IMG/VR virus record: IMGVR_UViG_3300045988_100918
Length of the DNA: 32,289 nucleotides
DNA from: a virus
Reading direction: 5' to 3' (one strand)
Part shown: positions 2,074-32,237 of the stretch, in pieces
Numbering within the stretch: the first letter of the stretch is position 1
Layout: each line of letters begins with the position of its first letter
Made by a program: the position numbers and the translations under genes
The notes under the pieces: generated by a model
The model's input: the letters and a program-made list of their open reading frames with translations, nothing else
Told to the model about the DNA's origin: nothing
The model's database searches: none

Positions 2074-3258
2074 CTAACCCGACGCGCGGCGCTTCGCTTC
2101 ACTGAAGAGCTGAGCCGCCGCCGCGTCTCGTCCGGGCATCAGGTGGCCGTAGATTCGAAGCGTCGTTGCTTCGTCCGCGTGCCCCATGCGCTCCGATAGC
2201 GTCTTCAGGTCGCATCCGTTGGCGATGAGCCACGAAGCGTGCGTGTGCCGCAGGCTGTGAAACGTGATCTCTCGCGGCAGTCCGCATGCGTCGCGTATGC
2301 GGCTGAAAGCCCGTGAAATCGTCGTTGGGCGCATGTAAGAGCCGTCTAGCGTCACCAGTGGGCAATCAGCGCCCAAGCGCCCCAGAACGTCGCCCTGAAG
2401 CTTCGTGAAGGCATCAATGACCGCGATATCGTCTTGCGTGAGCGCGATGTTGCGGCACTTGCGGCCTTTGGTCACGTTGCGGCGATAAGGCTTCTTGCCT
2501 TTGCCCTCAATGACGTTGCCGCCGACGTGGACGTAAGACAGGGTGCGCTTAACGTCGATGCGCTGCACCGCGCAGACCTCGCCAACGCGCATTCCGGTAA
2601 CGAGCGACAGCCACGAAGCGAAGGCGTAGACGGCGGCGCGGTAATCGGCTCTCGTCTCGACCTCCTTGCTAAGCGCGCCCTCTAGCTTCCCGTTGAAGCC
2701 CTCGAAGTTCCATTCGGTTAGCGCCGAAGCTTCGTGCCGTTCCGGCGATGGTTTGGCGACGTACACCAGCGGGTTAGCGTCGCAAATGCCAGCGTCTACG
2801 AAGTGGTTATAAGCGCCGCGCAAGAAGTTGTGGACGTTGATAACGCTGTTGCGGCAAAGACCTTGCCCGCCTTCGTCCTTCGCCATGAGCAAGCGTTGCT
2901 CAAAGCGGTTGAAGTCCATAACGCCAAGATCGCGTGCGTTTGCGGTCTTCAGATAACGTGCGACGTAGCGGCAAAACAGCCGATAGCTCTTAATGCTGTT
3001 CGGGCTTGCTCCGTTGCGCTCGCGCAGTTGCACGTAGTCTTCGAGCAAATCGGTCAAGCGGGCGCTTCTAACCGTTCCGTCAGCCGTCACGTAAGCCGCC
3101 CACGTCTCAGCGAGGGCTTGCGCTTCCTCTTCGGTTGCCGCATTCGGAAACCGCTTGTAAGGGCGAATCGCCTTGCCGTCGATGCTGCGACCAAGGTACA
3201 ACCGGCACTCGAAAACGCCATCTGCACCGCGCTTGACCTTAACGCCCATCATGACCAC
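2074..3258 (-). CDS. int: site-specific tyrosine integrase (phage-type, with N-terminal arm-binding-like domain)
   Basis: C-terminal catalytic pattern ...GMRVGEV..., HSLRHTHASWL, LGH...TT..Y (R-H-R-Y family). The N-terminal approximately 60 aa resemble an integrase DNA-binding domain. Confidence 0.9.
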   Translation of the reverse strand: MVMMGVKVKRGADGVFECRLYLGRSIDGKAIRPYKRFPNAATEEEAQALAETWAAYVTADGTVRSARLTDLLEDYVQLRERNGASPNSIKSYRLFCRYVARYLKTANARDLGVMDFNRFEQRLLMAKDEGGQGLCRNSVINVHNFLRGAYNHFVDAGICDANPLVYVAKPSPERHEASALTEWNFEGFNGKLEGALSKEVETRADYRAAVYAFASWLSLVTGMRVGEVCAVQRIDVKRTLSYVHVGGNVIEGKGKKPYRRNVTKGRKCRNIALTQDDIAVIDAFTKLQGDVLGRLGADCPLVTLDGSYMRPTTISRAFSRIRDACGLPREITFHSLRHTHASWLIANGCDLKTLSERMGHADEATTLRIYGHLMPGRDAAAAQLFSEAKRRASG

Positions 3259-3669: not shown

Positions 3670-3822
3670 GTGAAACCTCCTAAAACGTGAGCGCTATAAG
3701 CGCGAGAAACACTAGAAACAGCGCGATTGCCAGAAGCGCTTGATAAGCCCAGTAGCAGACGCACCAGAACGCGGCTACGGTAGCTGCGGTGGCAACGGCG
3801 CAAAGTACGATCTGGTAGCGCT

Positions 3823-4128
3823 TCACTTCTTTCCTTCCGTCTCGGCAATCAGGTAGTCGATGCACTGCTTGCACTTCTGCAAGTCCTGAACGCCGTTCTT
3901 GCGCCGCCAGCGCCAAAGGTATTTGAATGCGCAGCCCCACCAGTAGGCCGATTGTGCGGGCAAGGCGTACTGGTCGCCGCTCATCATCGAGCGCATAGCG
4001 TCCATGCACTCAATCTGGCCGTCGCCCGCGTAGTGGTCGGGATGCTCCACGGCATCACCGCGCGAAAGCTCGCCAAGGCTCTTCGCGTGCTTCGTCTCAA
4101 TCATCGGTAGGTAGCTCCAATCATCCAC
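3823..4128 (-). CDS. DUF3310-like phage protein
   Basis: HPDHY..G.IEC.D......YW.....KYLWR.......DL.K...Y matches the DUF3310 pattern, by recall. Confidence 0.5.
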   Translation of the reverse strand: MDDWSYLPMIETKHAKSLGELSRGDAVEHPDHYAGDGQIECMDAMRSMMSGDQYALPAQSAYWWGCAFKYLWRWRRKNGVQDLQKCKQCIDYLIAETEGKK

Positions 4129-7563: not shown

Positions 7564-8491
7564 AAAAGAGAAGTTACAAGCGATTGACCCAAAGAAGGTA
7601 ATCGTTTTTGATACCGAGACAACCGGCTTGAACATCGGCGGTTCTCGCCGCGATGAAATACTGTCGCTCGCTGTCATGAATCTTGACGGTGACGTTCTGT
7701 TTTGCGACCTATTGAAGCCATCGGAGCGCAAAAAGTGGCCTAAAGCGGAAAGCATAAACGGAATATCTCCGTCTATGGTGAAGGACAAGCAGACGATTGT
7801 AGAAAGGCGTTCGGAAATTGAACCGATTTTCAAGAACGCTAAGCTATACGTCGCATACAATGCCGATTTCGACCTAGGATTTCTTCGAGCTTCAGGCTTG
7901 GATATACCAGATCATCAGACGTTTGACGTGATGAAGGAGTTTGCGAAGATACACGGCGCATGGGACGGCACGCATGCTGAATGGTCATGGTGCAAGTTGG
8001 AAGATTGCGCAGCGTTCTACGGATATCGTGACTTTGGGGCGCATGACGCCTTGAACGACGTAAGAGCAACAGCGCATTGCTTCAATTCGATTCTCGATGA
8101 TTTTCTTTTTGGTGAGCCGCGCCGCCGCCCGAAGCGCGTAAAGGATGAGTTCGGCGATTCGTATTTCGAGTATGGCGACGAAGAGTTTAGAAGCATCGTT
8201 TGCAGCGGCTATGCTGCCGCATTGGCCGACACTGACGAACATACTAACAACGCGCCATCGGCTAACGAGGTTCAGCAGCAAGCCAAGGATGAAAAAGACA
8301 GCGTGGATAATCAACCGGACAGAAACCATGCCGTGCCAGATCGGCGGAACACGAATAAAGCATTGGTGTTAATCGGTTCCGTTTGCGTATTGATTGGGCT
8401 TGCAATCACTGTTTTAGGCGCAGCAATCGTTGGTGTCCCGATTGCTATATTGGGCGCTTTGCTTGCCATAGGTTCAAAGGGAAGGAAATAG
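7556..8491 (+). CDS. DEDDh 3'-5' exonuclease (DnaQ-like) with C-terminal transmembrane anchor
   Basis: VFDTETTGL (Exo I), YNADFDLGFL (Exo II), HDALNDVRATAHCF (Exo III, H-x4-D). The C-terminus has two hydrophobic helices (LVLIGSVCVLIGLAITVLGAAIVGVPIAILGALLAIG). Confidence 0.8.
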   Translation: MTRKEKLQAIDPKKVIVFDTETTGLNIGGSRRDEILSLAVMNLDGDVLFCDLLKPSERKKWPKAESINGISPSMVKDKQTIVERRSEIEPIFKNAKLYVAYNADFDLGFLRASGLDIPDHQTFDVMKEFAKIHGAWDGTHAEWSWCKLEDCAAFYGYRDFGAHDALNDVRATAHCFNSILDDFLFGEPRRRPKRVKDEFGDSYFEYGDEEFRSIVCSGYAAALADTDEHTNNAPSANEVQQQAKDEKDSVDNQPDRNHAVPDRRNTNKALVLIGSVCVLIGLAITVLGAAIVGVPIAILGALLAIGSKGRK

Positions 8492-8583
8492 AAAACCCTG
8501 CGCGGCTTCTTGGCGGTCGGCGCGCAGGGCAAGTGCAAAGAACGAAGCGCAATTGCGCGCTCGCTCTAAGGGGTGATTTTAGC

Positions 8584-10155
8584 ATGGTGAAGAACCGAGC
8601 TGCCATATACGCGCGGTTCAGCTCGCACAACCAACGCTCAGAAAGCATTGAGATACAAGTTGAGAACTCACGCGAATACTGCGAGCGTGAAGGCTTGCAT
8701 GTCGTGCGCGAATACTGCGACTATGCGCAGACAGGGCGCAACGTAGATCGAGCAGAGTTCCAACGGATGATGAGCGATGCGAAGCTTGGTCTATTTGATT
8801 TTGTGGTGATTTACAAGGTAACTCGCATAATGCGCAACCGCGATGAAATGGCATTGGCGCGAATCATGTTGCGCAAGGCTGGTGTAGAAATACTTTATGC
8901 GGGCGAAGAGATAGCGAGCGGTTCGAGCGGTGTTCTTCAGCTTGGAATGCTCGAAGTTCTCGCAGAATGGGAAAGCGCAATCGACAGTGAACGCATTAGA
9001 GACGGAATCCAGAAGAACGCCGAACGGTGCATGGCTAATGGTCGCACTCTCTATGGATGGGATATCGTAGAAGGACGCTACGCCATCAACGAGCGAGAAG
9101 CCGCAGTGCTTAGGCGCATGAAGAACCTTTTGTTTAGCGGTAACTCAGTAGCGGAGATCGTGCGCGCCGTTGACGCTGAGCGCAGCAAGCGCGGCGCAAA
9201 GTTCAATCAGGATACCGTCACCAAGCTTCTAAAGCGAGTGCAGAACGCAGGTGTCTACAAGTACGCAGGACACGAGGTAGAAGGCGGTATGCCAGCCCTA
9301 TGGTCACAAGCAGAACAGGATATGATAAACAGCATCCTTAGCGACCGTCACCGCCCACGAAGGAAGGTTGACAGCGCGCTAGAGTTCCCGCTTAGCGGAA
9401 AGCTCTATTGCGCTCGATGCGGAATGCCAATGGCCGGAACAAGCGGAACCTCTAAGAATGGTTCTGCCTATCACTATTACAAGTGCCGAAAATGCCGCAG
9501 GACAGTTCGCCGAGACTTGATAGAAGATGCAGTGGTCGATATGACCTATGAAGCAGTAAAGCAAGCTGATGTGAGAAAACGCATTGCCAAGACGCTTGCT
9601 GGCTACGAAGCTGAGCGGGCGACCGAAGAAAAGCCCGAAAGCTACTTCATCAAGAAAGAGATTCGGCGTATCGACACCGCGTTTGAACGCATCTGGCAAG
9701 CGATAGAAGACGGCATAGCGCCGCCCGGTGGCAGAGAGCGTACAACCGAGCTGAAGCGACAGAGAGCGGAGTTAGAAGCCCGCTTGCGCGTTGCAGAGCA
9801 AGCGGAATCGCTCGAACCATCGGTTGACGATGTGCTTTTGTGGCTCGATGATCTCGCGAACGACACAACGCCTTTGGAAATCCTCAACGAGTTTGTCAGA
9901 TTCGTTGAGATTGACGGCAAAGATGTAACCGTCTACTTCATGTTTGACGAACTGCCGGACGATTTCACGCCAAAACAGAAAAAGGCCGAACACCCTTGCT
10001 ACCAAAGGTGTTCGACCAATTCTCTTGTGGTGGAGCTTATGAGAAAAACGGCGAACTCCACCAGTACCGCCAACCGCGCATCTATCCAGCTTGATACTTG
10101 CGTTGTTAGAGTATCGAAAAACTGGTTTGTTGTCGTTGGCACGTGTCAAAAATAG
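8584..10155 (+). CDS. large serine recombinase (phage-integrase type)
   Basis: N-terminal resolvase catalytic domain (AAIYARFSSHNQ..., serine nucleophile). Recombinase domain, zinc ribbon CARCG...CRKC, and a C-terminal coiled-coil. ATG at 8584; the ORF track extends back to 8383. Confidence 0.85.
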   Translation: MVKNRAAIYARFSSHNQRSESIEIQVENSREYCEREGLHVVREYCDYAQTGRNVDRAEFQRMMSDAKLGLFDFVVIYKVTRIMRNRDEMALARIMLRKAGVEILYAGEEIASGSSGVLQLGMLEVLAEWESAIDSERIRDGIQKNAERCMANGRTLYGWDIVEGRYAINEREAAVLRRMKNLLFSGNSVAEIVRAVDAERSKRGAKFNQDTVTKLLKRVQNAGVYKYAGHEVEGGMPALWSQAEQDMINSILSDRHRPRRKVDSALEFPLSGKLYCARCGMPMAGTSGTSKNGSAYHYYKCRKCRRTVRRDLIEDAVVDMTYEAVKQADVRKRIAKTLAGYEAERATEEKPESYFIKKEIRRIDTAFERIWQAIEDGIAPPGGRERTTELKRQRAELEARLRVAEQAESLEPSVDDVLLWLDDLANDTTPLEILNEFVRFVEIDGKDVTVYFMFDELPDDFTPKQKKAEHPCYQRCSTNSLVVELMRKTANSTSTANRASIQLDTCVVRVSKNWFVVVGTCQK

Positions 10156-10255: not shown

Positions 10256-11320
10256 CTAATAAGAAAGCTTCTGGCCGGGGTAGATCGTATAAGGTGCCCC
10301 AATGCCGTTCTTGCTTGCGATGGTGTGCCAGTCGATGCCGAGCGAAGCGCCAATCTCGCTGAGCGTGTCGCCGCTCTTGACGGTGTAGACGCGCGCAGCG
10401 CCAACGCCCGCCCTCTGGTTGACGATTGCCTGAACCTCGCTGAAGCGGTCGCCCAGAACGTCGCTGCGCGTCGGCACAACGCCGAACATGCCGCGTTCCA
10501 CATCATCTGCGAGCTGAGAAGCGGAAGCGCCGTCAATGTAGTTGATGAGGTCTTGCACCTCTTGGTAACGGTCGCCGAGCTTTTCGCGGCGCTCAGCATC
10601 AACGCCATACTCGCCACGCATTACCGCTGCCGCAAGGTCAAGCGTCGTGCCCTCCGGCGAAGGCTCGGCGACCTCTGCGGGCGGAACGTCTGGTGCTGCC
10701 GCTCCGGACGGGTTGGCGAACTTACCCCACGCTTCGCGCGTCATGTAGGCGATATCGAGATCAAGCGGTGCGTTGAAGCCATCAAGACGGCCATTCGACG
10801 TGTACTGGTGGATTGCGCAGCTATCCCAAGCGCCGAAGCCGCCATCGGGAAGCCACGGCGAAGACTGGTAGCCTGTGCGGTTGTTGTTGGCGTACTGCGC
10901 AACCCAGAGCGCGTGATTCGGCGCAATCTGCGACCAATCTTCTTCGGTGCAAACGCTACGGCTCATGTAGACGATGCAGCGAACGCCGGTCTGATCGTAG
11001 ACGTAATCGAGGAACAGCTTTGCCTTGTCGGTTCCGATGCGCCCGTACATCTCATAATCGAGAACGGGAATGCCGTTACCGAAGTAGTTACGGCAGCTTG
11101 CGACGAAGTGCTTAGCTTGAGCGATGGGGTCTTCTCCGTTCATGAAGTGGTAGAAGCCCCAGAGTTTGCCGAGCTTGATAGCCTGCTGAATCCACGGGTC
11201 GCAGGTGTTGTGAACGATGGTAGTTCCCTCTGTCGCCTTGCAGATCACGAAGTCGCAAGGCACCTGCGCGAGGTCAAGCCCGCGCTGGTAGTTAGAAATA
11301 TCAATGCCGTTGAGTGCCAT
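10256..11320 (-). CDS. endolysin: GH25 muramidase + 2x CW_7-like repeats + C-terminal LysM
   Basis: N-terminus GIDISNYQ...DFVICKATEGT is GH25/Cpl-1-like. Two repeats (...LGDRYQEVQDLINYI / ...LGDRFSEVQAIVNQR) resemble Cpl-7 CW_7. LysM motif YTVKSGDTLSEIG...YPGQKL. Confidence 0.85.
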   Translation of the reverse strand: MALNGIDISNYQRGLDLAQVPCDFVICKATEGTTIVHNTCDPWIQQAIKLGKLWGFYHFMNGEDPIAQAKHFVASCRNYFGNGIPVLDYEMYGRIGTDKAKLFLDYVYDQTGVRCIVYMSRSVCTEEDWSQIAPNHALWVAQYANNNRTGYQSSPWLPDGGFGAWDSCAIHQYTSNGRLDGFNAPLDLDIAYMTREAWGKFANPSGAAAPDVPPAEVAEPSPEGTTLDLAAAVMRGEYGVDAERREKLGDRYQEVQDLINYIDGASASQLADDVERGMFGVVPTRSDVLGDRFSEVQAIVNQRAGVGAARVYTVKSGDTLSEIGASLGIDWHTIASKNGIGAPYTIYPGQKLSY

Positions 11321-12011
11321 AGAAGCCCCCTCTGATGCAGTAGAAGTAATGAAAATCGACCTGCTCTAGCTCTTCGAGCGTGAAGGCGCGCGCCGAGTTC
11401 CCAGCGCTCGCCGGGTCGCGTATCCAGTAGCCGTCATCGTCGGCGCGCCAGATCATCACGACGTGCCCGCCGTAGTCCCTATCTCCGAGTGTTCCGCTCA
11501 TGCCAGCGAACGCCAGCCATCCGTCAGACACGTTCTGAAGGACGGGCGCGAGATCGTAAGAAATCGGCGTGCTCTCGATGCCGTATTCCGGGTAATGCTC
11601 GGCAATCCACGCGCAGAACTTGCCGGGGTCGTTCACGCCATCGGTCAAGCACGTGTCGCCAACGAACGATGCGAGCGTGAGCGGTGTAATGTCCTGAAGC
11701 GTCATGTATTTGACAGCCATAGCCGCGCATGTAAGGCCGCAGCCGTATTCGCCGATAGCGCCGCCCGCATAGGGTATGTAGTCCCATTGCGGGTCGGTCT
11801 GAAGCCATAGCGGCATGCTGTTACCCTCTGCAATCGGCCTATCGACCACGATTGCAAGGCGGTCTTCCTCAGCCGCCGCGTATCCCTCTTCGCGCGCTTC
11901 AGCGAGCGCGCCCGCGTCGCTCTCGATATGGCCGACAATGAGCCAGCCGCAGTAGAGCATTGACGCGAGCGCGCCGGAAAGCACGAGGGCGACAGCCTTT
12001 AGCCTACTCAT
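11301..12011 (-). CDS. membrane-anchored papain-like (C39/BtrH-like) cysteine peptidase, lysis-associated
   Basis: N-terminal signal-anchor helix (LKAVALVLSGALASMLYCGWLIVG). Candidate catalytic Cys in GCGLTCAAMAV and His in GGHVVMIW. ATG at 12011. Confidence 0.5.
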   Translation of the reverse strand: MSRLKAVALVLSGALASMLYCGWLIVGHIESDAGALAEAREEGYAAAEEDRLAIVVDRPIAEGNSMPLWLQTDPQWDYIPYAGGAIGEYGCGLTCAAMAVKYMTLQDITPLTLASFVGDTCLTDGVNDPGKFCAWIAEHYPEYGIESTPISYDLAPVLQNVSDGWLAFAGMSGTLGDRDYGGHVVMIWRADDDGYWIRDPASAGNSARAFTLEELEQVDFHYFYCIRGGFYGTQRH

Positions 12012-12264
12012 AGCGCTTCGGCTCGGTGTAGGTGAGCGCTTGCGCGGAATCGCCAACGCCCGCCGTGGTCGGGTCGGTCACGATGCCCAGAATCGCGAGC
12101 ACGGCGAAAAGCGCGTTGATGATCGCGGCCAACTGCTCGTTCAGAACGCCGAAATCCCACTGGTACCCGAACGGTGCGGCGACCACCTGCACGAGCAGAA
12201 GGACGGCGGGAATGAGGGTCAGCCAAAACGTCTTGTTCTTGATTCGTGCGGTGAAGTTAATCAT
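12004..12264 (-). CDS. holin, phage phiLC3 family
   Basis: MINFTARIKNKTFWLTLIPAVLLLVQVVA...AIINALFAVLAILGIVTDPTT.GV.DS.QA..Y.EPK matches the phiLC3/Holin_LLH-like family. ATG at 12264 with an AAGGAGA RBS. Confidence 0.75.
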   Translation of the reverse strand: MINFTARIKNKTFWLTLIPAVLLLVQVVAAPFGYQWDFGVLNEQLAAIINALFAVLAILGIVTDPTTAGVGDSAQALTYTEPKRYE

Positions 12265-12281
12265 TTCAGTTCTCCTTGTTG

Positions 12282-12617
12282 TTAATCGGATGCGTGCGCA
12301 TCCATAAGCTCTTTCCATAGGTGGGTGCCAACGCCGTTGCCACCAAGTCTCGCGTACACCTCATGAACGCTGTTGGCTTGCTCTTTGATATCGAGCGGAA
12401 CAGGCTTGCCCGTCTGCACGTACTCCGCATGCAGCCTGAACAGCTCTGACTTCATGAGGGCGCGCATGCCTTGAAGCAGCAAATCATGCTCAGCGTCGAA
12501 CTTCGCATCGGCCTTGCGCTCTCGCTCCTTGTGCATCTTGACCGCAGCGCCGAGCGCGCCGACAACCGCTGTCATCACGGCGGAGAACAGCGCTAGAAAA
12601 ACCTCCGATGCTTCCAC
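12282..12617 (-). CDS. hypothetical protein with N-terminal TM helix
   Basis: 111-aa ORF immediately upstream of the holin. Confidence 0.4.
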   Translation of the reverse strand: MEASEVFLALFSAVMTAVVGALGAAVKMHKERERKADAKFDAEHDLLLQGMRALMKSELFRLHAEYVQTGKPVPLDIKEQANSVHEVYARLGGNGVGTHLWKELMDAHASD

Positions 12618-12618
12618 G

Positions 12619-13065
12619 TCAGCCCTCCGTCACCTCTCGCCAGACGGTTGCGGTGCCGGCAGCCCCCGGCTCCCAGACGTTGTTAGCAACGAGGGATTCC
12701 CAGACCTTGCCGTTGTGCTTCACGCGGGCACCGAGCGGATAGGGATTCGTAGAATCGGGCTGCACCCATTCGGGCGCTTCCTCTGTCGGCGTGTCGGGCG
12801 TTCTGGCTTCAAGCACCTTCGCCCAAAGGCTCGGCGCTGCCGTTGGTGACCAATCAGGCTGCGAAGTGTGCGCCTGAAGGCACGTGTAAAGCACGCCCTC
12901 GAAGCTCACGCGCTCGCCCTCGGAGTAGGCGTGGCCGTCGCCGTCCCACGCCGCGAAAAGCGCGGGGCACTTCGCCGCCACATCGCTAGAGAGCGACGGC
13001 GCTTGGCCGTCGAAAATGGCGATGATCGCGCGAAGCTTGCCCTCTTCCTCTTCGGTGAATGCCAT
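12619..13065 (-). CDS. hypothetical protein
   Basis: ATG at 13065 with an AAAGGGG RBS. The ORF track extends to 13089. Confidence 0.45.
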   Translation of the reverse strand: MAFTEEEEGKLRAIIAIFDGQAPSLSSDVAAKCPALFAAWDGDGHAYSEGERVSFEGVLYTCLQAHTSQPDWSPTAAPSLWAKVLEARTPDTPTEEAPEWVQPDSTNPYPLGARVKHNGKVWESLVANNVWEPGAAGTATVWREVTEG

Positions 13066-13084
13066 GTGTTCCCCTTTCTCTCGC

Positions 13085-13119
13085 AACAAAAAAGCCCCCG
13101 CTAATGCGAGGGCTTCGAT
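13085..13119 (-). terminator. rho-independent terminator downstream of the DGR RT gene
   Basis: AAGCCC..GC-TAAT-GC..GGGCTT hairpin followed by TTTTTTG on the minus strand. Confidence 0.6.
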
Positions 13120-13139
13120 ACCTTGCTATGTCGGCTTCC

Positions 13140-14249
13140 TCAGCCGAAAAGCTCCTTGTATAGCGCGTCCATGCGCTTTACCGTCTCGTGCGCGCTAAGG
13201 CGCTTCATGCTGCCGCGCCACGACTGGTAGGATTGGTTGACCTGCTCGACGGTCATAATCCCCTTGGCGACAAGCGCGGCTTGCTTCTTCAGCTTGCGCC
13301 GCTGCCGCGTCACGGAGGAACGGCACGGGCGAACGACAACCTTTCCGCCCTCGCCATATGAAAACCTCTTCTTCAGGAACACGAAGCCGCGCGTCAGCTT
13401 CACAACGCGCGTCTTCTTGCGGTTGATGATGATTCCCAGATCGTCGCAGAGCGCTTCGATGCGCGAAAGAGCGTCCCAAAGCGTCTGCTTGTCAAGGGCG
13501 ATGCAATAGCTATCGTCCATGTATCGCCCGCTCGCCAAGATGCCCGGAAGGGACAGCATCAGATGGTCAACGGGCGACGGCAGGGCGACGGCTAGAATCT
13601 GGTTCGGCTCGCTGCCAAGACCCAAGCCGCGCGCGCCGTGAGCGTCTATCTGGTCGCTCATGACGCGCTTAACGCGCTCATCGTCAATGGCTCGGTCGAT
13701 AAGGCGCTTGCATGCGTCGTGGTCGATGTTTGCGAAGTAGTCCGCGAAATCGACCTGCAAGATGTAGCCTTCCGCTCCATGCTTTCGGTGGTGCTCGACA
13801 AGCTGGCGCTTCATGCGTCGAATCGCGTAGTCGGTGCCGCGCCCCTTGACGTTCGCTGTGCATCCCTCGGTGAGGGTAGGCCAGATCGCGGGCGCAAGCG
13901 CGTGACGGCTCAACGATTTCTGTATAACGCGCTCTGAGAAGTGGACAGAGCAGATGTGACGAAGCTTGCCGCGCTCGAACAAGTCAAACTCAATGAAGCC
14001 GCGCCGGAAGTCAGCGCCCGTGAGAAAGTCGCGCCGTGCTCTCATGATGTTTGGAACGACGCGCGCCATGTAGCGCTGAACGCTCGATTTCCAACGCACG
14101 CCAGCGGCAGCGCCGTTGGCGGCATCGTATAGGTTATCGAGATCGGCGACAGCTTCCAGCGTGCAACCCTCGATGCGCCTAGCCCGGTTCTCAGCGCGCT
14201 TGGCATCGCGCCTTGCGCGCCGCGCAGCCCTGCGCTCTTCAGAGTTCAT
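13140..14249 (-). CDS. DGR reverse transcriptase
   Basis: RT motifs with catalytic YMDD (SGRYMDDSYCIA) and upstream FADYFANIDH. Likely start MNSEERRAA at 14249. The ORF-track extension to 14537 would run across the template repeat and is not credible. Adjacent TR/VR pair and avd-like gene. Confidence 0.9.
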   Translation of the reverse strand: MNSEERRAARRARRDAKRAENRARRIEGCTLEAVADLDNLYDAANGAAAGVRWKSSVQRYMARVVPNIMRARRDFLTGADFRRGFIEFDLFERGKLRHICSVHFSERVIQKSLSRHALAPAIWPTLTEGCTANVKGRGTDYAIRRMKRQLVEHHRKHGAEGYILQVDFADYFANIDHDACKRLIDRAIDDERVKRVMSDQIDAHGARGLGLGSEPNQILAVALPSPVDHLMLSLPGILASGRYMDDSYCIALDKQTLWDALSRIEALCDDLGIIINRKKTRVVKLTRGFVFLKKRFSYGEGGKVVVRPCRSSVTRQRRKLKKQAALVAKGIMTVEQVNQSYQSWRGSMKRLSAHETVKRMDALYKELFG

Positions 14250-14460
14250 GAGGGCACCCCGCGCGGCTCGCAATCGGCATCCAGCAGCCGCTTGACGGTT
14301 GACCATGAAACGCGGTCGAACGCCGAGAACCGCGCCATGCAAGCAGCGAACGGCAACCGTCGCGGGGTGCATATTTACGGGCTTGCGCCCGATGGTCGCC
14401 CCTTCCTTCCTCAAATGCACGGCGCGCGGCGCTTCCGGCCGCACGGTCTGGCAATGCTTG
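14250..14460 (-). ncRNA. DGR spacer region between TR and the RT start, expected part of the TR-containing DGR RNA
   Basis: Non-coding GC-rich segment containing a GCGGC-GCTTCCG-GCCGC hairpin. Its position matches the spacer used to prime cDNA synthesis in characterized DGRs. Confidence 0.4.
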
Positions 14461-14589
14461 GGAATCACGGCAGCGGGCGCACCCAGTCGTTCGTCGGCGC
14501 ATTGTTGTTGGCATTGCCGTTGCTGTTGACATTGCACGCGCTAGACGAAGACCCGCCCATGACCGACCGCAGCCACCAATTGACGCGAT
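14461..14589 (-). repeat. DGR template repeat (TR)
   Basis: 129-bp near-copy of 15162-15290. On the minus (coding) strand it is rich in AAC/AAT codons (AAT GTC AAC AGC AAC GGC AAT GCC AAC AAC AAT). Mismatches to the VR are almost exclusively at template adenines. Confidence 0.9.
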
Positions 14590-14617
14590 GATTTCCAAGG
14601 GACAACGCGCGAACATT

Positions 14618-15028
14618 CTACCCATTTCCAATGAGCTTCACGCCCGCGCGAGCGCCCTTTATGAGCTTTATATCGTTCTCGATGCTCTCTGAGATCTCTT
14701 CGAACTTAGCCACCTTGACGGGTAGCTTCATCGCAAGAAGGCATTGCAGGTCTTGGTAAAGCTGGTTTAGGTCTGCCAAGGCAAGCGTCATGTAATGCTT
14801 GCGTTCCTCGACGTTCCGCTGTGTGTTCGGGTAGAAGGCATCAGCCTTCACAAGGTTGAACACCACGCTTCGCGCCGTCTCCGCCATGGGGACGGCGAAG
14901 ATGAAGCGATAGGATTTGGGCACCGCGCCCGAAGTGACAAGGCGCGTCACCTCGTTTCGAATCGAAACCGCAGTGTTGAAATACTCGAACGTGCTTAGGT
15001 TGCGGTTCCGCACATATACGCCGCTCAA
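14618..15028 (-). CDS. avd: Avd-like accessory variability determinant (small basic helical protein)
   Basis: 136-aa ORF sitting exactly between the target gene and the TR, as in the Bordetella phage mtd-avd-TR-brt cassette. Apparent TTG start preceded by GGAGGGG. Basic, helix-rich composition. Confidence 0.5.
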   Translation of the reverse strand: MSGVYVRNRNLSTFEYFNTAVSIRNEVTRLVTSGAVPKSYRFIFAVPMAETARSVVFNLVKADAFYPNTQRNVEERKHYMTLALADLNQLYQDLQCLLAMKLPVKVAKFEEISESIENDIKLIKGARAGVKLIGNG

Positions 15029-15061
15029 TTTGCAACATCCCCCCCCCCTCCGTGATTTTCA

Positions 15062-15098
15062 AAAAAATACTTCGCCCGCGCTTCGCGCGGGGAAGTAT
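15062..15098 (-). terminator. rho-independent terminator between the DGR target gene and avd
   Basis: TACTTCGCCCGCGC-TTC-GCGCGGGGAAGTA stem (15069-15098) followed on the minus strand by TTTTTTT (complement of 15062-15068). Confidence 0.7.
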
Positions 15099-15150
15099 GG
15101 GCGCATGCGCAAGGCATGCGCCAGACCTGTACCATATACGGCTGATTTTA

Positions 15151-16053
15151 TCAGCCTAGGAGGAAGCACGGCAGCGGGCGCACCCAGTCGTTCGTCGGCG
15201 CAGTGTAGCTGGCAAGGCCGTGGCCGCTGACAATGCACGCGCTAGACGAAGCCCCGCCCATGACCGACCGCAGCCACCAAATGACGCGACCGCCCGCGAT
15301 GCGGCTTGCGGTGTCGGTGAAGATTGGGAACTGCGAATCGAAGCCGACAGAGTAGCCCTTGCTGCCCCATACTGGGCACCCGTAAACCTCCATCTCTGAG
15401 GGCGACCAAATCTTGCCCAAGTCCGCCCAGCTCCAACCGCTCGCTTCGGTGAGCTTGCCCGAAGACGAATAGCGCTCTTCGAGAAGCACGCGCTGCGCGA
15501 GAATGGCGCTCTGAAGCGTGGACGGCAGCGCGGGCAAGAAATCGTTGATCTCCCAATCATGGAGCTTCGAGCACAAGTAAGGGTGCTTATCTTCGGCGGT
15601 GCCGTTGTTGTCGTTTGTCTCGCGCCACTGAAGGTAGCTCGTGTTGGATGCCTTGTCGCCCTTCACGGTGACGGGCGCTTTCGGCACCATGACGATATGA
15701 TGCCCCTTCGCGGTGTCTCCGCACTGGTAATACTGGTCGATAGCGCCGATGCGGTAGCGCACCGTCTGCGCTGGCACGTTAGCGCCCTCGGAAACGGGAA
15801 CGTCGATGTAGTCTCCGATGCGCAGACCGGCGAAGTTGGCGTTTCGCGCGCGGTTGCGAAGCCACGTGTAAATGTCGGTGCTGCCGATCTCGTTAGCGAA
15901 GACCGAAGCGAGCGAGCGCCCCGCGTAAGCGTTGATGTTGTGCTGGCGGTCGTATTCCTCGGCGGTCGTGACAGAATCGGCCTTGCTCTGCGCTGAAGTG
16001 TCCTTCAGGTTGTACGCGGTGCCATTGATAGAAAACTTCGACAAATCAGCCAT
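15151..16053 (-). CDS. DGR target protein: tail fiber / receptor-binding protein with a variable C-terminus (presumed C-type-lectin-like)
   Basis: 300-aa ORF in the tail module. Its C-terminus ...SSSACIVSGHGLASYTAPTNDWVRPLPCFLLG is encoded by the VR. Variable residues I, S, G, H, L, S, Y, T correspond to N/S codons in the TR. Confidence 0.8.
   Translation of the reverse strand: MADLSKFSINGTAYNLKDTSAQSKADSVTTAEEYDRQHNINAYAGRSLASVFANEIGSTDIYTWLRNRARNANFAGLRIGDYIDVPVSEGANVPAQTVRYRIGAIDQYYQCGDTAKGHHIVMVPKAPVTVKGDKASNTSYLQWRETNDNNGTAEDKHPYLCSKLHDWEINDFLPALPSTLQSAILAQRVLLEERYSSSGKLTEASGWSWADLGKIWSPSEMEVYGCPVWGSKGYSVGFDSQFPIFTDTASRIAGGRVIWWLRSVMGGASSSACIVSGHGLASYTAPTNDWVRPLPCFLLG
15162..15290 (-). 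repeat. DGR variable repeat (VR) at the 3' end of the target gene
   Basis: Aligns to the TR with offset +701 and 13 mismatches. The 36 bp at the 3' end of the coding strand (15167-15201 region) are identical to the TR, as expected for an IMH-like invariant segment. It encodes the last 43 codons of ORF 15151..16053. Confidence 0.9.
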
Positions 16054-16068
16054 TGATAGTCTCCCTTC

Positions 16069-16800
16069 TTAGTTGAGCGTCGCCGTCTCGCCGCTCACGG
16101 TGGCTTGCGCAACCGTGACCGTCTCGCCGGATAGGGCGCTTCGTCTGTTTGTGGGCATGTACGCCGTTTCTCCAAGGACTATGTAGCCGTCCTGAAGCTC
16201 GACAAGGGCTGTCGCAAGCGTCGCGTTCTCGTCGCGCAGCTCTTGCACCTCGTCATCTGACGGCGGTTCGATAGCCGCGACAGCGTTTGCGATATTAAGC
16301 GCGTTCTGTGCTGCGGCGGTGGCATCCTCTGCCGCGCCGTTTGCAGTCGCAGCGGCGGTGTTGGCGTTCTTTACCGCCGTCTCTCCACGGTCGATGAGGT
16401 CTTGAACGGCATCGTCCCAGTTCTGCGCGGGCTGCTGCCCGTCAAGAGCGCTGCGCAGGATTTCTATTGCGAATCGCTCTGTCGAATAGGTCTTGCCGCT
16501 CTTCGTGATCGTGAAATAGGCTTCGTCGGTGTAGCCGGACACGCTGCAAAGCTTCGATTCGTCAACCGTGATCGTGGCGGCGTTTCCGCTCACCGAGCAT
16601 TGGCCGCGATAGTAGTTACGTTTGTTAGGCAGCAGCACGACAAGCCATGCCGTAGCACCTGAAAGCGCGAACTCATCGCCGTTGTCGTAGATAAGCGCCT
16701 TGATGGTGGTTCCGCCATCGTCGCCCTGACCAACCTTGATGCAGGTTCCCGCGCCCTCCTTCGAGATATCGAGTTCAAGCGTCCGTGTGTTGCTCATCAC
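16069..16800 (-). CDS. BppU-like tail/baseplate protein
   Basis: The N-terminal domain resembles siphovirus BppU_N. It has an Ala-rich coiled-coil middle and is immediately upstream of the receptor-binding gene. Confidence 0.4.
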   Translation of the reverse strand: MMSNTRTLELDISKEGAGTCIKVGQGDDGGTTIKALIYDNGDEFALSGATAWLVVLLPNKRNYYRGQCSVSGNAATITVDESKLCSVSGYTDEAYFTITKSGKTYSTERFAIEILRSALDGQQPAQNWDDAVQDLIDRGETAVKNANTAAATANGAAEDATAAAQNALNIANAVAAIEPPSDDEVQELRDENATLATALVELQDGYIVLGETAYMPTNRRSALSGETVTVAQATVSGETATLN

Positions 16801-17273
16801 TCGCCGCCTTCCTCGACGGTGCCGTATGCAAGCGCGCGGAGGGCTTCGAGCGCTTCGGCGAAGCTCATAGCAGATCGCGCCTTGCTAGACACGGGCTGCA
16901 CGTCCGCGCTCGCGGCGACGGCTGGCACGCTCGCGGCCAAAGCGTCGAACACATCGACAACCGCCCTCATGCGGTCATCGACGTACAAGGGCTGAACGAG
17001 CGTGAAGGGCTGATCGTCGTTGATTGGCTCCTTCACGTCTTCCGGCTGCACGACGGTTCGGTTTCCGTCTTCGTCAACCGCAATGAAAATCATTCCGTTG
17101 TTCGCGGCGCGGTTGATAAGCTCTTCGTCGTATTCGGTCACCATCGCTTCGCAGTTGCCTATCGGGTCGTGCAGCATGTGATAAAGTGTCTTGCTCATCG
17201 TTCCTCCTAGTCGAAGTTGCATACCGTGCAGAAGCCGTCTACAAAGTCGATGCTTCGCGTTGCGCTCCACCAT
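16797..17273 (-). CDS. hypothetical tail-associated protein
   Basis: 158-aa ORF between the Tal and BppU-like genes. Confidence 0.4.
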   Translation of the reverse strand: MVERNAKHRLCRRLLHGMQLRLGGTMSKTLYHMLHDPIGNCEAMVTEYDEELINRAANNGMIFIAVDEDGNRTVVQPEDVKEPINDDQPFTLVQPLYVDDRMRAVVDVFDALAASVPAVAASADVQPVSSKARSAMSFAEALEALRALAYGTVEEGGE

Positions 17274-19381
17274 GTAATCGTGCCGTCGCCGTTATCCTGA
17301 ATCTTGCTGACGTAATGCAACGTGCAATCTTTCGTGATCGCATGCGTTGTCGTGGTGCTCTCGCTGCTAGATGCAGCGGCGGAAATAAGCGGCGTGGTGA
17401 TTCGGATATGCTGGTTTCCCGTCAACTGAAGACCGGCCGTTAGCTGCCCGGTGCTAACGTTTCGCATGTGCGCTGAGAAGTCGATAGCCCCGATCTGCGT
17501 TCCGTCTTCGTAGCCTTTAATCTCGCCACTGGCAAGACGAATGAGGTTTGAAGCAGAACCGCATTCGAACGTACCGTTAGCGTCGATATTGTTTGCCGTC
17601 ATGTAGTTTGTCGTAAGCGAACCGGTGTTGAGGTTCCACGTGCTGCGACCGTATCTGTCGCTGATGATGCCCGTTTCAATGTAGGTAGCATTGATGTAGA
17701 CTTTACCGCCGCTGAGATAGATTCCCTGCGTCTGCCCGTTGTTGGTCAGCTTGTTGAATATGTCGCGTTGCGTTTGAGCATCGACGGCTGAGCTTGCCGC
17801 ATCGTCGGCGATTTTCTGAACGGTCTTGCCGCCAACCTCGGTGCTTGCGGAAAGCGAGAACTCGCCGTTGGTCAAGTCCCAGAAGTTGTTTCCCTTCTCG
17901 TCGGTCAGAAGACCGGCGCGCACGCGCTCGGCTCTCATGGTGCCCGTGTTGATCGCGTCGGCGCTCACCATAGCGCCTGTCAGGAAGGTTCGCCAGTCCC
18001 ATTGACCGTCAGAAGTGAGGTTCGCGGCAAGTCGCATGCCCATACCGTTAATGTTGACAGCCCACATGCCCGAAGTCGCTTTGACCGGCAAGCCCGTTTC
18101 AGCGTCGATGGGTACATTGCTCCACATCGTGCCAAGTTCGAATGTCTCGACCTTGTAGGTTCCAACGGCGTTGAACTGAGCGTTTATCGCGGCCTGAAGC
18201 TGCTGAAGCCACGAAACCGACGTGCCCGCCGCAGCGTCATAGATTGCGTTCTGTTGGCTGTTGCTCTTTAACGCGTTGCTTACGCTCTGCCACATGTCGG
18301 CCATGCTGTCAGTAAGAGTGCCGAACGTAACGGTAGCGTCGCCGGTGAGCAAGTCGCGCTCAATCTGAGACACGCGGCCATGCAGGCGCACGCCCTCGGC
18401 AGAAAAGCCCTTGTCGATGATCGCCACGTCATCGCCCACGCCCACGCCCTCCCATGAGCGCCCGAACGCGTAAAGGTCGATAACCGAAGCGGTGTAGGTT
18501 ACTTTCGGCTCCTTCACCTGCTCTAGGTAGTCTTTCGTTTCCTGCAAGAGCTGCGCCGCGTCCTCGCACTGCGCGTTGACGTATGACGCGACGGCGGGAA
18601 GAATGCCGCCCTCTCCGTCAGGGTGCCCCCAAACGGTAGTAGCTTCGGCATCCTCCACGTAGTCTTTGCCGCCGTTGATATCGCCGAAGGTGAGACGGCG
18701 ACCGTAGCCGCCACCCTCAGTCTCAACGCCCTTGCCGTAACCGTAGACGCGAGTTTTCGGGTTGTCGCTCGCAACAGAGCGCTTGACGGAAACGAGGTCT
18801 TTAGTCCATGTAAAACGCTTTGCGCTGCTCTGGTTCCCGCGCTTCGCGCGCACGCCCACGCGGCGGCTCACAATGCCCGTACCGTTGTGGACGATGAGCG
18901 TTTCAAGCTCGCCGCCCCACGTCTCGATGATTCCGGCCAATCCCTCGCGCACGCTCTCATGGTAGAAGGTGCGCGAGGCTGTGCCGCCCTGATCGCACGT
19001 GCCGACCTCCCAGCGCGTGTCTGCGAGAATGGACGCGAGCGCTACCGACACGCCGCCAGAAGGCCGCTTATCGTCCAGCCAGTCATCCCACGTTTCGTTA
19101 ACAGAGTTGATGCAGACGGCTTGCGTCTCTGGCGCGCCGTCATCGTCGTGTGCGCGGTCGATGGTGTCAACGATGTGTTCGTGGCACACGCCCTGAAGGT
19201 CAATCCAAACTACGCGGTCGCCCTTCACGAGGTCTTCGGCGCACGTGATGTTGAGTTCGTCGGTTCCGTCCAGCGCGTCGGTGTGCGTCGCGGCGCTCAC
19301 CGTGAGCCGCCCCAGATTGTCGCCCCAGCGGTTGAAGCGGGTGAAGCCGATACGTCTTATTAAAGCCATCGTTCCACCCAC
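17207..19381 (-). CDS. tail-associated lysin / prophage tail endopeptidase-type protein (Tal)
   Basis: 724 aa downstream of Dit, the canonical TMP-Dit-Tal order. N-terminus MALIRRIGFTRF... (ATG at 19369 possible). Confidence 0.6.
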   Translation of the reverse strand: MGGTMALIRRIGFTRFNRWGDNLGRLTVSAATHTDALDGTDELNITCAEDLVKGDRVVWIDLQGVCHEHIVDTIDRAHDDDGAPETQAVCINSVNETWDDWLDDKRPSGGVSVALASILADTRWEVGTCDQGGTASRTFYHESVREGLAGIIETWGGELETLIVHNGTGIVSRRVGVRAKRGNQSSAKRFTWTKDLVSVKRSVASDNPKTRVYGYGKGVETEGGGYGRRLTFGDINGGKDYVEDAEATTVWGHPDGEGGILPAVASYVNAQCEDAAQLLQETKDYLEQVKEPKVTYTASVIDLYAFGRSWEGVGVGDDVAIIDKGFSAEGVRLHGRVSQIERDLLTGDATVTFGTLTDSMADMWQSVSNALKSNSQQNAIYDAAAGTSVSWLQQLQAAINAQFNAVGTYKVETFELGTMWSNVPIDAETGLPVKATSGMWAVNINGMGMRLAANLTSDGQWDWRTFLTGAMVSADAINTGTMRAERVRAGLLTDEKGNNFWDLTNGEFSLSASTEVGGKTVQKIADDAASSAVDAQTQRDIFNKLTNNGQTQGIYLSGGKVYINATYIETGIISDRYGRSTWNLNTGSLTTNYMTANNIDANGTFECGSASNLIRLASGEIKGYEDGTQIGAIDFSAHMRNVSTGQLTAGLQLTGNQHIRITTPLISAAASSSESTTTTHAITKDCTLHYVSKIQDNGDGTITWWSATRSIDFVDGFCTVCNFD

Positions 19382-20097
19382 TCAAGAATCGCGGTGCCGT
19401 TGGTGATGTTCAGGTGGCAGCGACCGTTGATCTCGAAGTAATCCGAGTCAATCGTTACCGGCGCTGTCTGGTTGTTGACCGTCGCGTGCTCGGTCGCCAT
19501 GTCAAGCCGTATGGTGCTCGAAGACGTGAGCGCGGTGTTGATAGCCACGAACTCGCCGGTATCGACGTTCGTAATCCTCCACGTGCTGCCAGCGGCGGGC
19601 TTCGCCGTGACCTTCAGGTATGCGGGTCGGTTGCCGCCAGCGTTCACGTAGATGTTGCCAGCCGAAACCTCCATGCGGCGCTTCTGGCCGTAATAGTCGG
19701 GGTCGCCGACGTGGAACGTCACGGTGGTTGTCGGGCAATCGTCCGTGATCTCGTCTAGGTCGGTGCTGCCGCTCACGATTGCGAGCAGGTAGCGCGTCGG
19801 GTCATCGGGAAGGTAGAGCGGCGCGGGTTCGTCAGTCCAGAGAGCCGCCGCGAGCTTGTGCCGCATCTCCGCGACCTCGCGGCGGTCTTCAGTCCTAAGC
19901 CAAATCTCAACGGGAAGGTCGTAGCCGCCACGGTAGGCGCTCTTGAAGACCTCGCCATGCCGCCCCGGCACGCTCTCGAACGTCGCGTTGACGGTCGCCA
20001 TGATGGGGCGGCGCACCTTGCAGTAAACCAGCTTCGATAGGTCGGTGCCGTTGAAGATGATTCGGTCGTGCTGGTTCCTAGTCCGTCTAAGTTGCAA
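19360..20097 (-). CDS. distal tail protein (Dit, Sipho_tail family)
   Basis: 245 aa immediately after the tape measure gene, with Sipho_tail-like N-terminal beta-sandwich sequence features. Confidence 0.6.
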   Translation of the reverse strand: MQLRRTRNQHDRIIFNGTDLSKLVYCKVRRPIMATVNATFESVPGRHGEVFKSAYRGGYDLPVEIWLRTEDRREVAEMRHKLAAALWTDEPAPLYLPDDPTRYLLAIVSGSTDLDEITDDCPTTTVTFHVGDPDYYGQKRRMEVSAGNIYVNAGGNRPAYLKVTAKPAAGSTWRITNVDTGEFVAINTALTSSSTIRLDMATEHATVNNQTAPVTIDSDYFEINGRCHLNITNGTAILEWVERWL

Positions 20098-31193: not shown

Positions 31194-31281
31194 TGGCGGA
31201 GCGTGTAGGATTCGAACCTACGGGCGACAGTGCGCCACACGGTTAGCAACCGTGCGCAATAAGCCACTCTGCCAACGCTCC
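31194..31281 (-). tRNA. tRNA-Ser (anticodon GCU), class II with long variable arm
   Basis: Minus-strand sequence GGAGCGT.../...ACGCTCC forms a 7-bp acceptor stem. 3-bp D-stem. Anticodon stem CACGG/CCGTG with loop TTGCTAA (anticodon GCT). Variable arm GGCG-CACTGT-CGCC. T-arm GTAGG-TTCGAAT-CCTAC. CCA is encoded. Confidence 0.85.
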
Positions 31282-31830: not shown

Positions 31831-32237
31831 ATGCCGTCACCGCCAGATCGCGCACGCTTGCGCTCTTCGCGCCAAAGCTTGAAGGCTTCCCATAGCCCGA
31901 GCTTCGCAAGGTCTGTGCTCGGCGGCTGAGCCTTTACCAGCGCCACGCCGTCAATAGAGGCAGACACAACCTCAGCGCCGATAAGATACTCAGCCACAAG
32001 CCCCAGCTCATCGACAAGCACGCGTTCGCAACGCATGAGCGAGCCTTTTAGCGGCATGCCCGATAACGACAGGACGGGTGGAATCTGAACGTTCATCCTA
32101 CGCGCCATAAGCTCGATGTTCTCGGCCATTCCGCGCGTTGCGGTCAGGATTGGATAGCCAGTCTCGTTCGACATTGCGATAAGGCACGTGGTCTTGCCCG
32201 TCTGCCTTCCACCGATGATTGCCAGCATTCCAACCAC
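31827..32237 (-). CDS. small P-loop NTPase
   Basis: Walker A GGRQTGKT and a Walker B-like VLVDELG. The GTG start lies in the terminal repeat, directly after the dut stop. Confidence 0.45.
   Translation of the reverse strand: MVGMLAIIGGRQTGKTTCLIAMSNETGYPILTATRGMAENIELMARRMNVQIPPVLSLSGMPLKGSLMRCERVLVDELGLVAEYLIGAEVVSASIDGVALVKAQPPSTDLAKLGLWEAFKLWREERKRARSGGDGM

Follow-up and report, generated by a model that had tools for sequence, protein, structure and literature searches.

Diversity-generating retroelements (DGRs) are best known from Bordetella phage BPP-1, a podovirus of a proteobacterium, whose cassette (mtd-avd-TR-brt) serves as the prototype. The closest characterised cassette to the one described here is that of Roseburia phage Shimadzu (LR596903, orf22-Avd-TR-RT), a P2-like myovirus of a Firmicute in which a target of 431 aa occupies the tail-fibre slot and 16 of the 17 TR/VR mismatches lie at A. 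Moreover, DGRs acting on DUF6273 proteins have already been published from gut phages. These include nd4/nd12, with their 'tentaclins' and an Mtd-like target2, as well as the Faecalibacterium phages Lelie, Roos, Pioen and Toutatisvirus, and in them the VR lies at the C-terminus of DUF6273, which is reported to be a C-type-lectin-like DGR target (PMC10743442, PMC11792537, bioRxiv 10.1101/2024.10.15.618418). The system considered here is of this well-understood kind, and the current understanding of DGRs is unchanged by the present data.

The window, meaning the whole stretch of DNA that was analysed, is a virus record of 32,289 nt (IMGVR_UViG_3300045988_100918). Its minus strand carries, at 13140-16053, a genuine, complete and evidently population-active DGR of a widespread Collinsella (human gut) prophage. 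The reading of this locus as a phage DGR acting by mutagenic retrohoming is given a probability of about 0.93. Its features are as follows.

13091-13116, minus strand: terminator-like hairpin with T-run closing the avd-TR-RT unit, from a terminator scan
13140-14249, minus strand: DGR reverse transcriptase (RT), 369 aa, with YMDD and LGSEPNQ motifs
14234-14456, minus strand: TR-RT spacer RNA, Rfam RT-2 (RF03077), full-length, overlapping the first 15 nt of the RT ORF
14461-14589, minus strand: TR, non-coding, with an in-frame TGA where the VR has codon 296
14618-15028, minus strand: avd-like gene (divergent Avd), 136 aa, TTG start, pI 9.4, four-helix bundle
15039-15048, minus strand: poly-G tract (G10) between an SD-like GGA and the avd start
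15059-15098, minus strand: intrinsic-terminator-like GC-rich stem with T-run after the target gene, within the fold of 15055-15175
15100-15122, minus strand: hairpin H2, GGCGCATGC-CTTGC-GCATGCGCC, invariant across all Coriobacteriia loci
15140-15156, minus strand: hairpin H1, GGCTGAT-AAA-ATCAGCC, overlapping the stop codon and beginning 5 nt past the end of TR/VR homology
15151-16053, minus strand: DGR target gene, 300 aa, DUF6273 at residues 142-294, putative baseplate-attached receptor-binding protein
15162-15189, minus strand: IMH-like 3' terminus of the VR, GC-rich and the same in TR and VR, then C (15166) against TR A (14465), a fixed difference
15162-15290, minus strand: VR, codons ~255-298 of the 300-aa target
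16069-16800, minus strand: BppU_N baseplate upper protein (PF10651, E 2.4e-7; phrog minor tail protein), directly upstream of the target gene

The first-pass annotation had proposed a complete cassette at the junction of tail and lysis genes, and each element that it listed was found on the minus strand at, or a few bases off, the position given there. The order is target gene with VR, terminator, avd-like gene, TR, spacer RNA and RT, so that the comparison drawn with the BPP-1 gene order holds for target, avd-like gene, TR and RT. The 136-aa ORF lies between VR and TR, and the TR is placed ~210 nt upstream of the RT. Upstream of the DGR are Prophage_tail (17207-19381) and BppU_N genes, and downstream are genes for a CBM5/12 protein, a holin, a C39-like peptidase and a GH25 lysin. 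A sigma-70 promoter scan for the DGR transcript returned one site, which equals the shuffle expectation. None of 50,697 phage records was matched by megablast with positions 11000-20000, and relatives of the locus are detectable at the protein level or in metagenomes only.

Compared with BPP-1, the RT is 24% identical to bRT and carries LGSEPNQ instead of IGSLTSQ, while the Avd-like protein and the target have no detectable sequence similarity to Avd and Mtd. The spacer RNA is RT-2 (222 nt) here but Phage_DGR (127 nt) at the equivalent place in BPP-1, and the present phage is a siphovirus of a Gram-positive actinobacterium with a BppU-type baseplate. Shimadzu has the same order, the same RT-2 spacer RNA (144.9 bits) and homologous target (36%), Avd (28%) and RT (47%) proteins, without DNA-level similarity to the window. 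The RTs of the DUF6273-targeting gut phages are homologous to the RT here at about 28-31%. The present locus differs from those phages in its single target, the lack of Ig-like domains and its host phylum (Actinomycetota, Coriobacteriia), and a tblastn search with the target protein against them gave no match at E<=1e-3. The target-avd-TR-RT module is common to an Actinomycetota siphovirus, a Firmicutes myovirus and a Treponema element, and it thus moves as a unit.

TR (14461-14588) and VR (15162-15289) are 91% identical over 128 nt with a start-to-start spacing of 701, in keeping with the near-identity to a 129-bp TR noted at first, and the VR encodes residues ~255-298 of the target ORF, as the earlier description of it as the last 43 codons implied. 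Eleven of the 12 mismatches over 128 nt fall at TR adenines on the coding strand, the sole exception being T to G (TR 14551 / VR 15252). Over the 129-nt core the count is 12 of 13, for which the hypergeometric probability of falling on the 25 adenines is 2.3e-9. Furthermore, the conserved repeat blocks of 23 nt (the IMH-like block) and 26 nt occur exactly twice each in the window, with 0 expected by chance, and a search of the window through these blocks therefore yielded no second, remote VR.

The same pattern extends to related Collinsella/Coriobacteriia prophages, from which 18 TR/VR pairs were compared. Here 189 of the 194 variable mismatches lie at TR adenines (A to G 81, A to T 59, A to C 49), and 8 TR variants stand against 18 VR variants, the VRs being all distinct. 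Non-adenine substitutions that separate the TRs of different lineages are mirrored in the cognate VR in 50 of 50 cases, with 0 unmirrored, and of 29 cases of a new TR adenine, 6 show a new variable site. Judged from comparison of these sequences, information passes in one direction, from TR to VR. In five loci from four samples (L002-L006) the TR is identical at 131/131 positions, and these loci carry three further VRs, none equal to that of the window; L003-L005 have one VR in common, with the same protein. In L003 the RT looks truncated, which raised the possibility of a natural loss of the RT with the VR frozen, but the apparent truncation is due to a scaffold gap of 100 N and was dismissed as an artefact. 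Different VRs are carried by at least six proteins that match the window's target at every residue from 1 to 254, and when the target is clustered with its relatives at 90% identity, a single cluster contains up to 790 distinct sequences. Across 46 relatives, the positions that show 7-15 residue types correspond to TR-adenine (mostly AAY) codons, and most adenine-free VR codons are invariant or nearly so. VR polymorphism, which the first-pass annotation had expected at TR-adenine positions, is thus abundant across samples and limited to TR-adenine codons. Because the flanks are ~99.2-99.5% identical to those of relatives whose VRs all differ, VR turnover appears recent. Diversification is evidently ongoing in the population, and this cross-sample diversity suggests that the window's own copy is active as well.

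The RT ORF matches Pfam RVT_1 and has YMDD at residue 243, as first annotated, and LGSEPNQ at residue 211. RTs of the DGR clade are recognised by a motif 4 of the [LIV]GxxxSQ type with a terminal Q, a YxDD motif, and a position nearer to bRT than to intron or retron RTs. The best solved relative of the RT is BPP-1 bRT (8ub7_A; E 6e-11, residues 32-354 aligned), whereas a group II maturase reaches E 1.5e-4 in the same comparison with solved structures; the feared grouping with group II intron or retron RTs did not appear. The pairwise comparison with bRT gives 24% identity at E 8e-17, and phrog_1423 is matched at 6e-61. The motif LGSEPNQ aligns with bRT IGSLTSQ as an S-to-N variant. The bRT residues F66, R74, I76, G182 and Q187, whose roles are described in bioRxiv 10.1101/2023.10.23.563531, are conserved, with I181 replaced by L and S186 by N. 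The protein would accordingly be placed in the DGR clade on its motifs and nearest relatives.

The spacer between TR and RT scores 99.9 bits with the Rfam RT-2 model, for which the gathering score is 40 (E 3e-22, model positions 1-222/222), and reaches the same score in relatives. It recurs at the equivalent position in Shimadzu, in L017 and in the Treponema locus L025. The presence of RT-2 as the TR-RT spacer in four DGR lineages is a new side point. Weinberg et al. 2017 located RT-10 in the BPP-1 spacer and speculated on other RT motifs for other DGRs (PMC5737381). As RT-2, an orphan motif in Rfam, lies exactly in the TR-RT spacer in four divergent lineages, its function as a DGR template/primer RNA is likely. 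A role of RT-2 as the spacer RNA that primes in cis throughout a large clade of DGRs, in Actinomycetota, Firmicutes and Spirochaetota phages, is more probable than the poly-G switch considered below. Being structurally distinct from the BPP-1 Phage_DGR RNA, RT-2 could provide a second natural system for the generality of bRT-Avd-RNA priming.

Under the proposed mechanism, the RT and the Avd-like protein, a basic four-helix bundle, would jointly bind a transcript of the avd 3' end, TR and RT-2 spacer. If priming proceeds as in BPP-1, the spacer RNA would then fold back and prime cDNA synthesis within the TR 3' end, at 14466-14479. The start of the cDNA is bracketed in this way because the TR position equivalent to 14480 is variable (in L020 and L023) while the A/C difference between 14465 and 15166 is fixed in 18 of 18 pairs, and also in the distant L025. 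The RT would copy C, G and U faithfully and place any nucleotide opposite adenines, and the cDNA would take the place of the target gene's 3'-terminal VR, with a hairpin close by and the GC-rich IMH-like end presumably giving the direction. With ~24 TR adenines in 15 codons (nine AAY), roughly 1e14 protein variants and never a stop codon are predicted, and the varied residues would form the C-terminus of the C-type-lectin-like DUF6273 domain.

Two hairpins are candidates for the directing element. H1 sits at the same relative position as the target-site hairpin of BPP-1 and was considered as a hairpin of that type; in the L017-19/23 subgroup it is not conserved, being reduced to GGCT-GATA-AGCC. 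Neither hairpin has covariation support, since H1 is unconserved in one subgroup and H2 never varies. The distant L025 also has a GC-rich hairpin after the VR. The region 15055-15175 folds with z = -5.7 (0/200 shuffles fold as well), and its GC-rich stem and T-run at about 15059-15098 bear out the terminator that had been annotated after the target. This stem is unlisted by the simple terminator scan and absent in the L017 subgroup.

The 136-aa protein encoded between target and TR is small and basic and models as a four-helix bundle, its best fold matches being the Avd/IVP family. The search of its sequence against Pfam, NCBIfam and PDB sequences gave nothing significant, and the Avd family models PF05635 (23S_rRNA_IVP) and PF22296 (bAvd) were not matched. 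A profile comparison with BPP-1 Avd, of the kind that the first reading had suggested as a check, reached an hhalign probability of 0.1%, and a 50-member profile (Neff 5.3) was still without significant match. Three of the 50 distant family members match PF05635/PF22296 weakly (best E 7.8e-4). Weak matches to Abl interactor and designed helical bundles were treated as coiled-coil or helical noise. In place of sequence similarity to BPP-1 Avd, the avd assignment draws on fold, charge, position (synteny) and homology to the Avd annotated in Shimadzu, and the protein is accordingly regarded as a divergent Avd.

In the target protein, DUF6273 has the VR at its C-terminal end. Because the AlphaFold model has pLDDT <50 over residues 216-287 (the VR domain), it was not used for a claim of a CLec fold. 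The hhalign comparison of the target with Mtd gave nothing, and cytochrome c oxidase matches (E ~0.05) in the profile search against PDB were spurious. The target is most likely a tail receptor-binding protein whose tip is rewritten by the DGR, with the BppU_N protein as its likely docking partner.

Three other readings were weighed. That the locus is no DGR at all, but a group II intron, retron or defence RT beside an incidental repeat or an assembly duplication, could be argued from NCBIfam, where the best match of the RT is the group II intron model group_II_RT_mat (TIGR04416; E 3.4e-15), and from weak retron/DRT matches. However, all NCBIfam matches are far under the family cutoffs (56 bits vs 300 for the best), the best PADLOC match (58.5 bits) is generic and sub-threshold, bRT is the best solved relative, and the whole window contains no match to a group II intron or retron RNA family at the Rfam gathering threshold. 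An assembly duplication, which had been named as a possible source of the TR/VR similarity, is ruled out by the adenine specificity of the mismatches and by the presence of this arrangement in 17 independent assemblies, cultured C. aerofaciens isolates among them. Together with the copying of every non-adenine TR change into the VR, this leaves the reading effectively refuted. It is also improbable, though less so, that the window's own cassette is frozen and that the cross-sample VR diversity arose in ancestors or relatives. The exact target protein has no replicate, being absent from a 15-billion-protein collection, the VRs of some relatives are near their TR (4-6 mismatches in L014 and L015), and the poly-G before avd is at its longest here. 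Against this, every part of the cassette is intact, the RT is 99% identical to those of relatives, loci with other VRs share the window's TR unchanged, RT-2 scores as in relatives, and the nearly identical flanks accompany VRs that all differ.

A different question is what the diversified protein does. It could, with rather low probability, be an accessory adhesin for mucus or other glycans (Hoc-like or 'tentaclin'-like) or a superinfection-related surface protein, the DGR itself being real. DUF6273 is also found in non-phage proteins, for example the IgA protease ThomasA (PMC12402451), among the DUF6273 proteins published as DGR targets are 'tentaclins' with Ig domains and Hoc-like proteins that decorate the head (PMC10743442, bioRxiv 10.1101/2024.10.15.618418), and the gene just past the RT encodes a distinct carbohydrate-binding protein (CBM5/12). 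Nevertheless, the target gene directly follows the Dit-Tal-BppU baseplate genes, natural BppU_N+DUF6273 fusions exist, the Shimadzu homologue lies after baseplate J/gpI genes, and Pfam detects no Ig-like domains in the target. A tail receptor-binding protein therefore agrees better with the setting, and since the target is encoded directly after the BppU gene, the most likely role of the DGR is to adapt the phage's receptor-binding tip as the Collinsella surface changes.

Collinsella aerofaciens is a prevalent human gut commensal. Since the prophage recurs in cultured isolates and many metagenomes, it offers a natural and tractable case in which receptor-binding evolution driven by a DGR can be followed in an actinobacterial host. 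A final observation concerns the tract of G residues before avd. It could be a slipped-strand 'contingency' switch placing DGR hypermutation under phase-variable control, either by tuned Avd translation or through an overlapping out-of-frame ATG-initiated ORF, although we regard this as doubtful; no relation between tract length and VR/TR divergence was seen among the loci. The tract varies from G7 to G10 between near-identical loci, the window's being the longest, and a length-variable poly-G just upstream of avd is itself a new side point.

The cassette lies on the minus strand and comprises a target gene, an avd-like gene, a template region (TR) and a reverse transcriptase (RT) gene. ORF listing and repeat finding place its parts as follows.

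15151-16053, minus strand: target ORF, 300 aa
15162-15289 (variable region, VR) and 14461-14588 (TR), minus strand: direct repeat of 128 nt, 91% identity
14618-15028, minus strand: avd-like ORF, 136 aa, TTG start
13140-14249, minus strand: RT ORF, 369 aa, from a plausible ATG start

Read on the coding strand, the two copies of the 128-nt repeat differ at 12 positions, and 11 of these are adenines in the downstream non-coding copy. For the 129-nt core, 12 of 13 mismatches fall on such adenines, and the probability of so many on its 25 adenines is 2.3e-9. The upstream copy encodes residues ~255-298 of the target. Since ORF order, repeat, adenine-site differences and VR position all match, the coordinates and description of the diversity-generating retroelement (DGR) in the first-pass annotation, with a VR at the 3' end of the target gene, are correct. 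A second VR was sought in the window and none was found; the conserved repeat blocks occur exactly twice, and thus there is a single VR.

Closely related prophages occur in Collinsella aerofaciens isolates, in Collinsella and Enorma MAGs and in other Coriobacteriia, and flanking DNA is 99.2-99.5% identical to the window; the prophage of one related locus, L002, is integrated beside host ribosomal protein genes. In five loci from four samples (L002-L006), the TR is identical to that of the window (131/131) and three further VRs occur, all unlike the window's; a single VR is common to L003-L005, the three loci having been found through one and the same protein. Eighteen TR/VR pairs comprise 8 TR variants and 18 VR variants, and 189 of their 194 variable mismatches lie at TR adenines, A going to G, T or C. 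Moreover, every lineage-distinguishing non-adenine TR substitution (50/50) is present in the cognate VR, and new TR adenines have led to new variable sites in 6 of 29 cases. These last two observations are direct comparative evidence for TR-to-VR copying. Among proteins, at least six database entries have zero differences from the window over residues 1-254 and different VR-encoded residues. Codons that show 7-15 residue types across 46 relatives are those with TR adenines, mostly AAY, and most codons without an adenine vary hardly or not at all. Clusters of the target at 90% identity hold up to 790 distinct sequences.

The five non-adenine mismatches in the 18 pairs, a small sample, are four T->G and one G->A. 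The window's own T->G (TR 14551 / VR 15252) corresponds to S268A, and Ala268 is also found in database variants P0253 and P0268. These non-adenine mismatches could be due to an error bias of the RT outside adenines or to ordinary mutation and selection.

At 14465/15166, all pairs, the distant Treponema locus included, have A in the TR and C in the VR; through this fixed difference a TGA of the TR becomes a Cys codon of the VR. An IMH/IMH*-type asymmetry located 3' of the point where the cDNA begins is expected to look like this. In some lineages a TR adenine at the position equivalent to 14480 is variable, which puts the predicted start of cDNA synthesis between 14466 and 14479. With the fixed site left out, 24 TR adenines are transferable; nine of the codons concerned are AAY, five others have four options each and one has three; the possible target proteins number ~1.2e14, without a stop codon.

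The RT matches Pfam RVT_1 and PHROG 1423 'reverse transcriptase' (6e-61), and NCBIfam and PADLOC searches returned only generic RT matches below threshold. Its closest solved relative is bRT of Bordetella phage BPP-1 (8ub7_A, E 6e-11, residues 32-354), with a group II intron maturase far behind (1.5e-4); pairwise comparison with BPP-1 Brt from NC_005357 gives 24% identity (E 8e-17). The catalytic motif is YMDD, and bRT residues F66, R74, I76, G182 and Q187 are kept. Owing to the changes I181->L and S186->N, the DGR-type motif reads LGSEPNQ. No group II intron or retron RNA families were found by Rfam in the window. The earlier proposal of a DGR-type enzyme is supported by bRT as its best solved relative and by this Rfam result. 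In the related locus L003 the RT seems truncated, which is due to a 100-N scaffold gap (L003 5832-5931) and no deletion.

Searches of Pfam, NCBIfam and PDB did not match the 136-aa protein to Avd by sequence, and neither did hhalign, even with a 50-member profile; PF05635/PF22296 are weakly touched by 3 of its 50 distant relatives. The protein annotated as Avd in Roseburia phage Shimadzu is 28% identical to it (E 2e-15). The 136-aa protein is basic (pI 9.44; BPP-1 Avd, 9.55). Judged by fold, charge, position and homology to the Avd of another DGR, it is predicted to be a divergent Avd. The avd-like label given at first pass therefore holds on these four grounds, but not on sequence similarity to BPP-1 Avd in profile searches.

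A poly-G tract (G10, 15039-15048, minus strand) lies between an SD-like GGA and the avd TTG start, with an out-of-frame ATG directly after it. Over the window and 17 related loci (n = 18, otherwise ~99% identical), its length is G7 in 4, G8 in 4, G9 in 8 and G10 in 2. A subgroup of relatives (L017-19 and L023) is without the tract and has AGGAGG and a GTG start instead. The length variation may reflect strand slippage that makes Avd expression phase-variable, or it may be noise from assembling a homopolymer; across the window and related loci it showed no correlation with VR/TR divergence.

The entire TR-RT spacer (14234-14456, minus strand) is a full-length Rfam RT-2 RNA (RF03077), scoring 99.9 bits against a gathering score of 40. 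Shimadzu (144.9 bits), a Gordonibacter-type relative and a Treponema caballi MAG whose RT has only 42% identity all carry RT-2 at this position. Its coordinates in the related loci are as follows.

L001, 4682-4905: RT-2 spacer
L017, 3794-4016: RT-2 spacer
L025 (distant Treponema locus), 3771-4011: RT-2 spacer

In BPP-1, the equivalent place is taken by a different family, Phage_DGR (RF03022). Weinberg et al. (PMC5737381) put RT-10 in the BPP-1 spacer and offered other RT motifs for DGRs as speculation only, and no paper linking RT-2 to DGRs was found in the literature searched. RT-2 is very likely a DGR template/primer spacer RNA. Additionally, the strand downstream of the VR folds into three hairpins (z = -5.7).

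H1: overlaps the target stop codon, at the same relative position as the BPP-1 hairpin
H2: 9-bp GC-rich stem
H3: terminator-like stem and T-run

Another terminator-like site lies downstream of the RT, and a promoter scan was uninformative.

BPP-1 has the same gene order and logic; beyond that, the two cassettes have nothing in common but the RT, at 24% identity, and the fold of Avd. In Shimadzu, a myovirus of a Firmicute, all three proteins and the RT-2 RNA are truly homologous to those of the window. Classical mutagenic retrohoming, as in BPP-1, is the best explanation of the cassette. RT-2 RNA would prime cDNA synthesis, Avd and RT would form a complex and the hairpins may have roles in the process. 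The part varied in this way would be the distal face of a protein that is presumed to be attached to the baseplate and to bind the receptor.

The target carries a DUF6273 domain (residues 142-294, Pfam) with the VR at its C-terminus. Gut-phage DGR targets with exactly this arrangement are published, and the domain is described there as C-type-lectin-like (PMC10743442, PMC11792537, bioRxiv 10.1101/2024.10.15.618418). A profile search of the target for similarity to Mtd failed. Because the gene follows those for Dit, Tal and BppU_N, natural BppU_N-DUF6273 fusions exist and the homologue in Shimadzu is encoded at the tail-fibre position, we infer a baseplate-attached receptor-binding protein with a diversified distal face. 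Among proteins more than 90% identical, residues 2-27 (window ~15973-16050) occur as two alleles differing at 17-20 positions, and the rest outside the VR is nearly constant, which suggests a modular exchange of the baseplate-docking part. The BppU_N protein (16069-16800, minus strand) has 243 aa in the window versus 333 aa in L002, L004 and L006. The difference is due to an in-frame loss of ~270 nt from the region that encodes the Ala-rich, stalk-like centre; the junction lies near 16355-16369, and a 15-nt overlap flanks the deletion in alignments.

Gut phages are rich in DGRs, ~31,000 having been surveyed as stated in the introduction of one preprint (bioRxiv 10.1101/2023.10.23.563531), and DGRs with DUF6273 targets are already published. 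A DNA-level comparison of 11000-20000 with phage records gave no match. The literature search found no paper specifically on a Collinsella phage DGR; large surveys would have captured such an element.

Owing to an exact 55-nt terminal direct repeat (1-55 and 32235-32289), the window is a circularly closed assembly of a complete temperate siphophage genome of ~32,234 bp with a GC content of 58.6%. It further contains two recombinases, two putative lysins, a tRNA gene and a carbohydrate-binding protein that is kept between RT and holin in relatives.

2074-3258, minus strand: tyrosine integrase-family protein
8383-10155, plus strand: large serine recombinase (Resolvase + Recombinase + Zn_ribbon_recom)
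10256-11320, minus strand: putative lysin, GH25 + CW_7 + LysM muramidase
11301-12056, minus strand: putative lysin, C39-like peptidase
12619-13089, minus strand: CBM5/12 carbohydrate-binding protein
31194-31281, minus strand: tRNA-Ser, anticodon GCT, inside the phage genome
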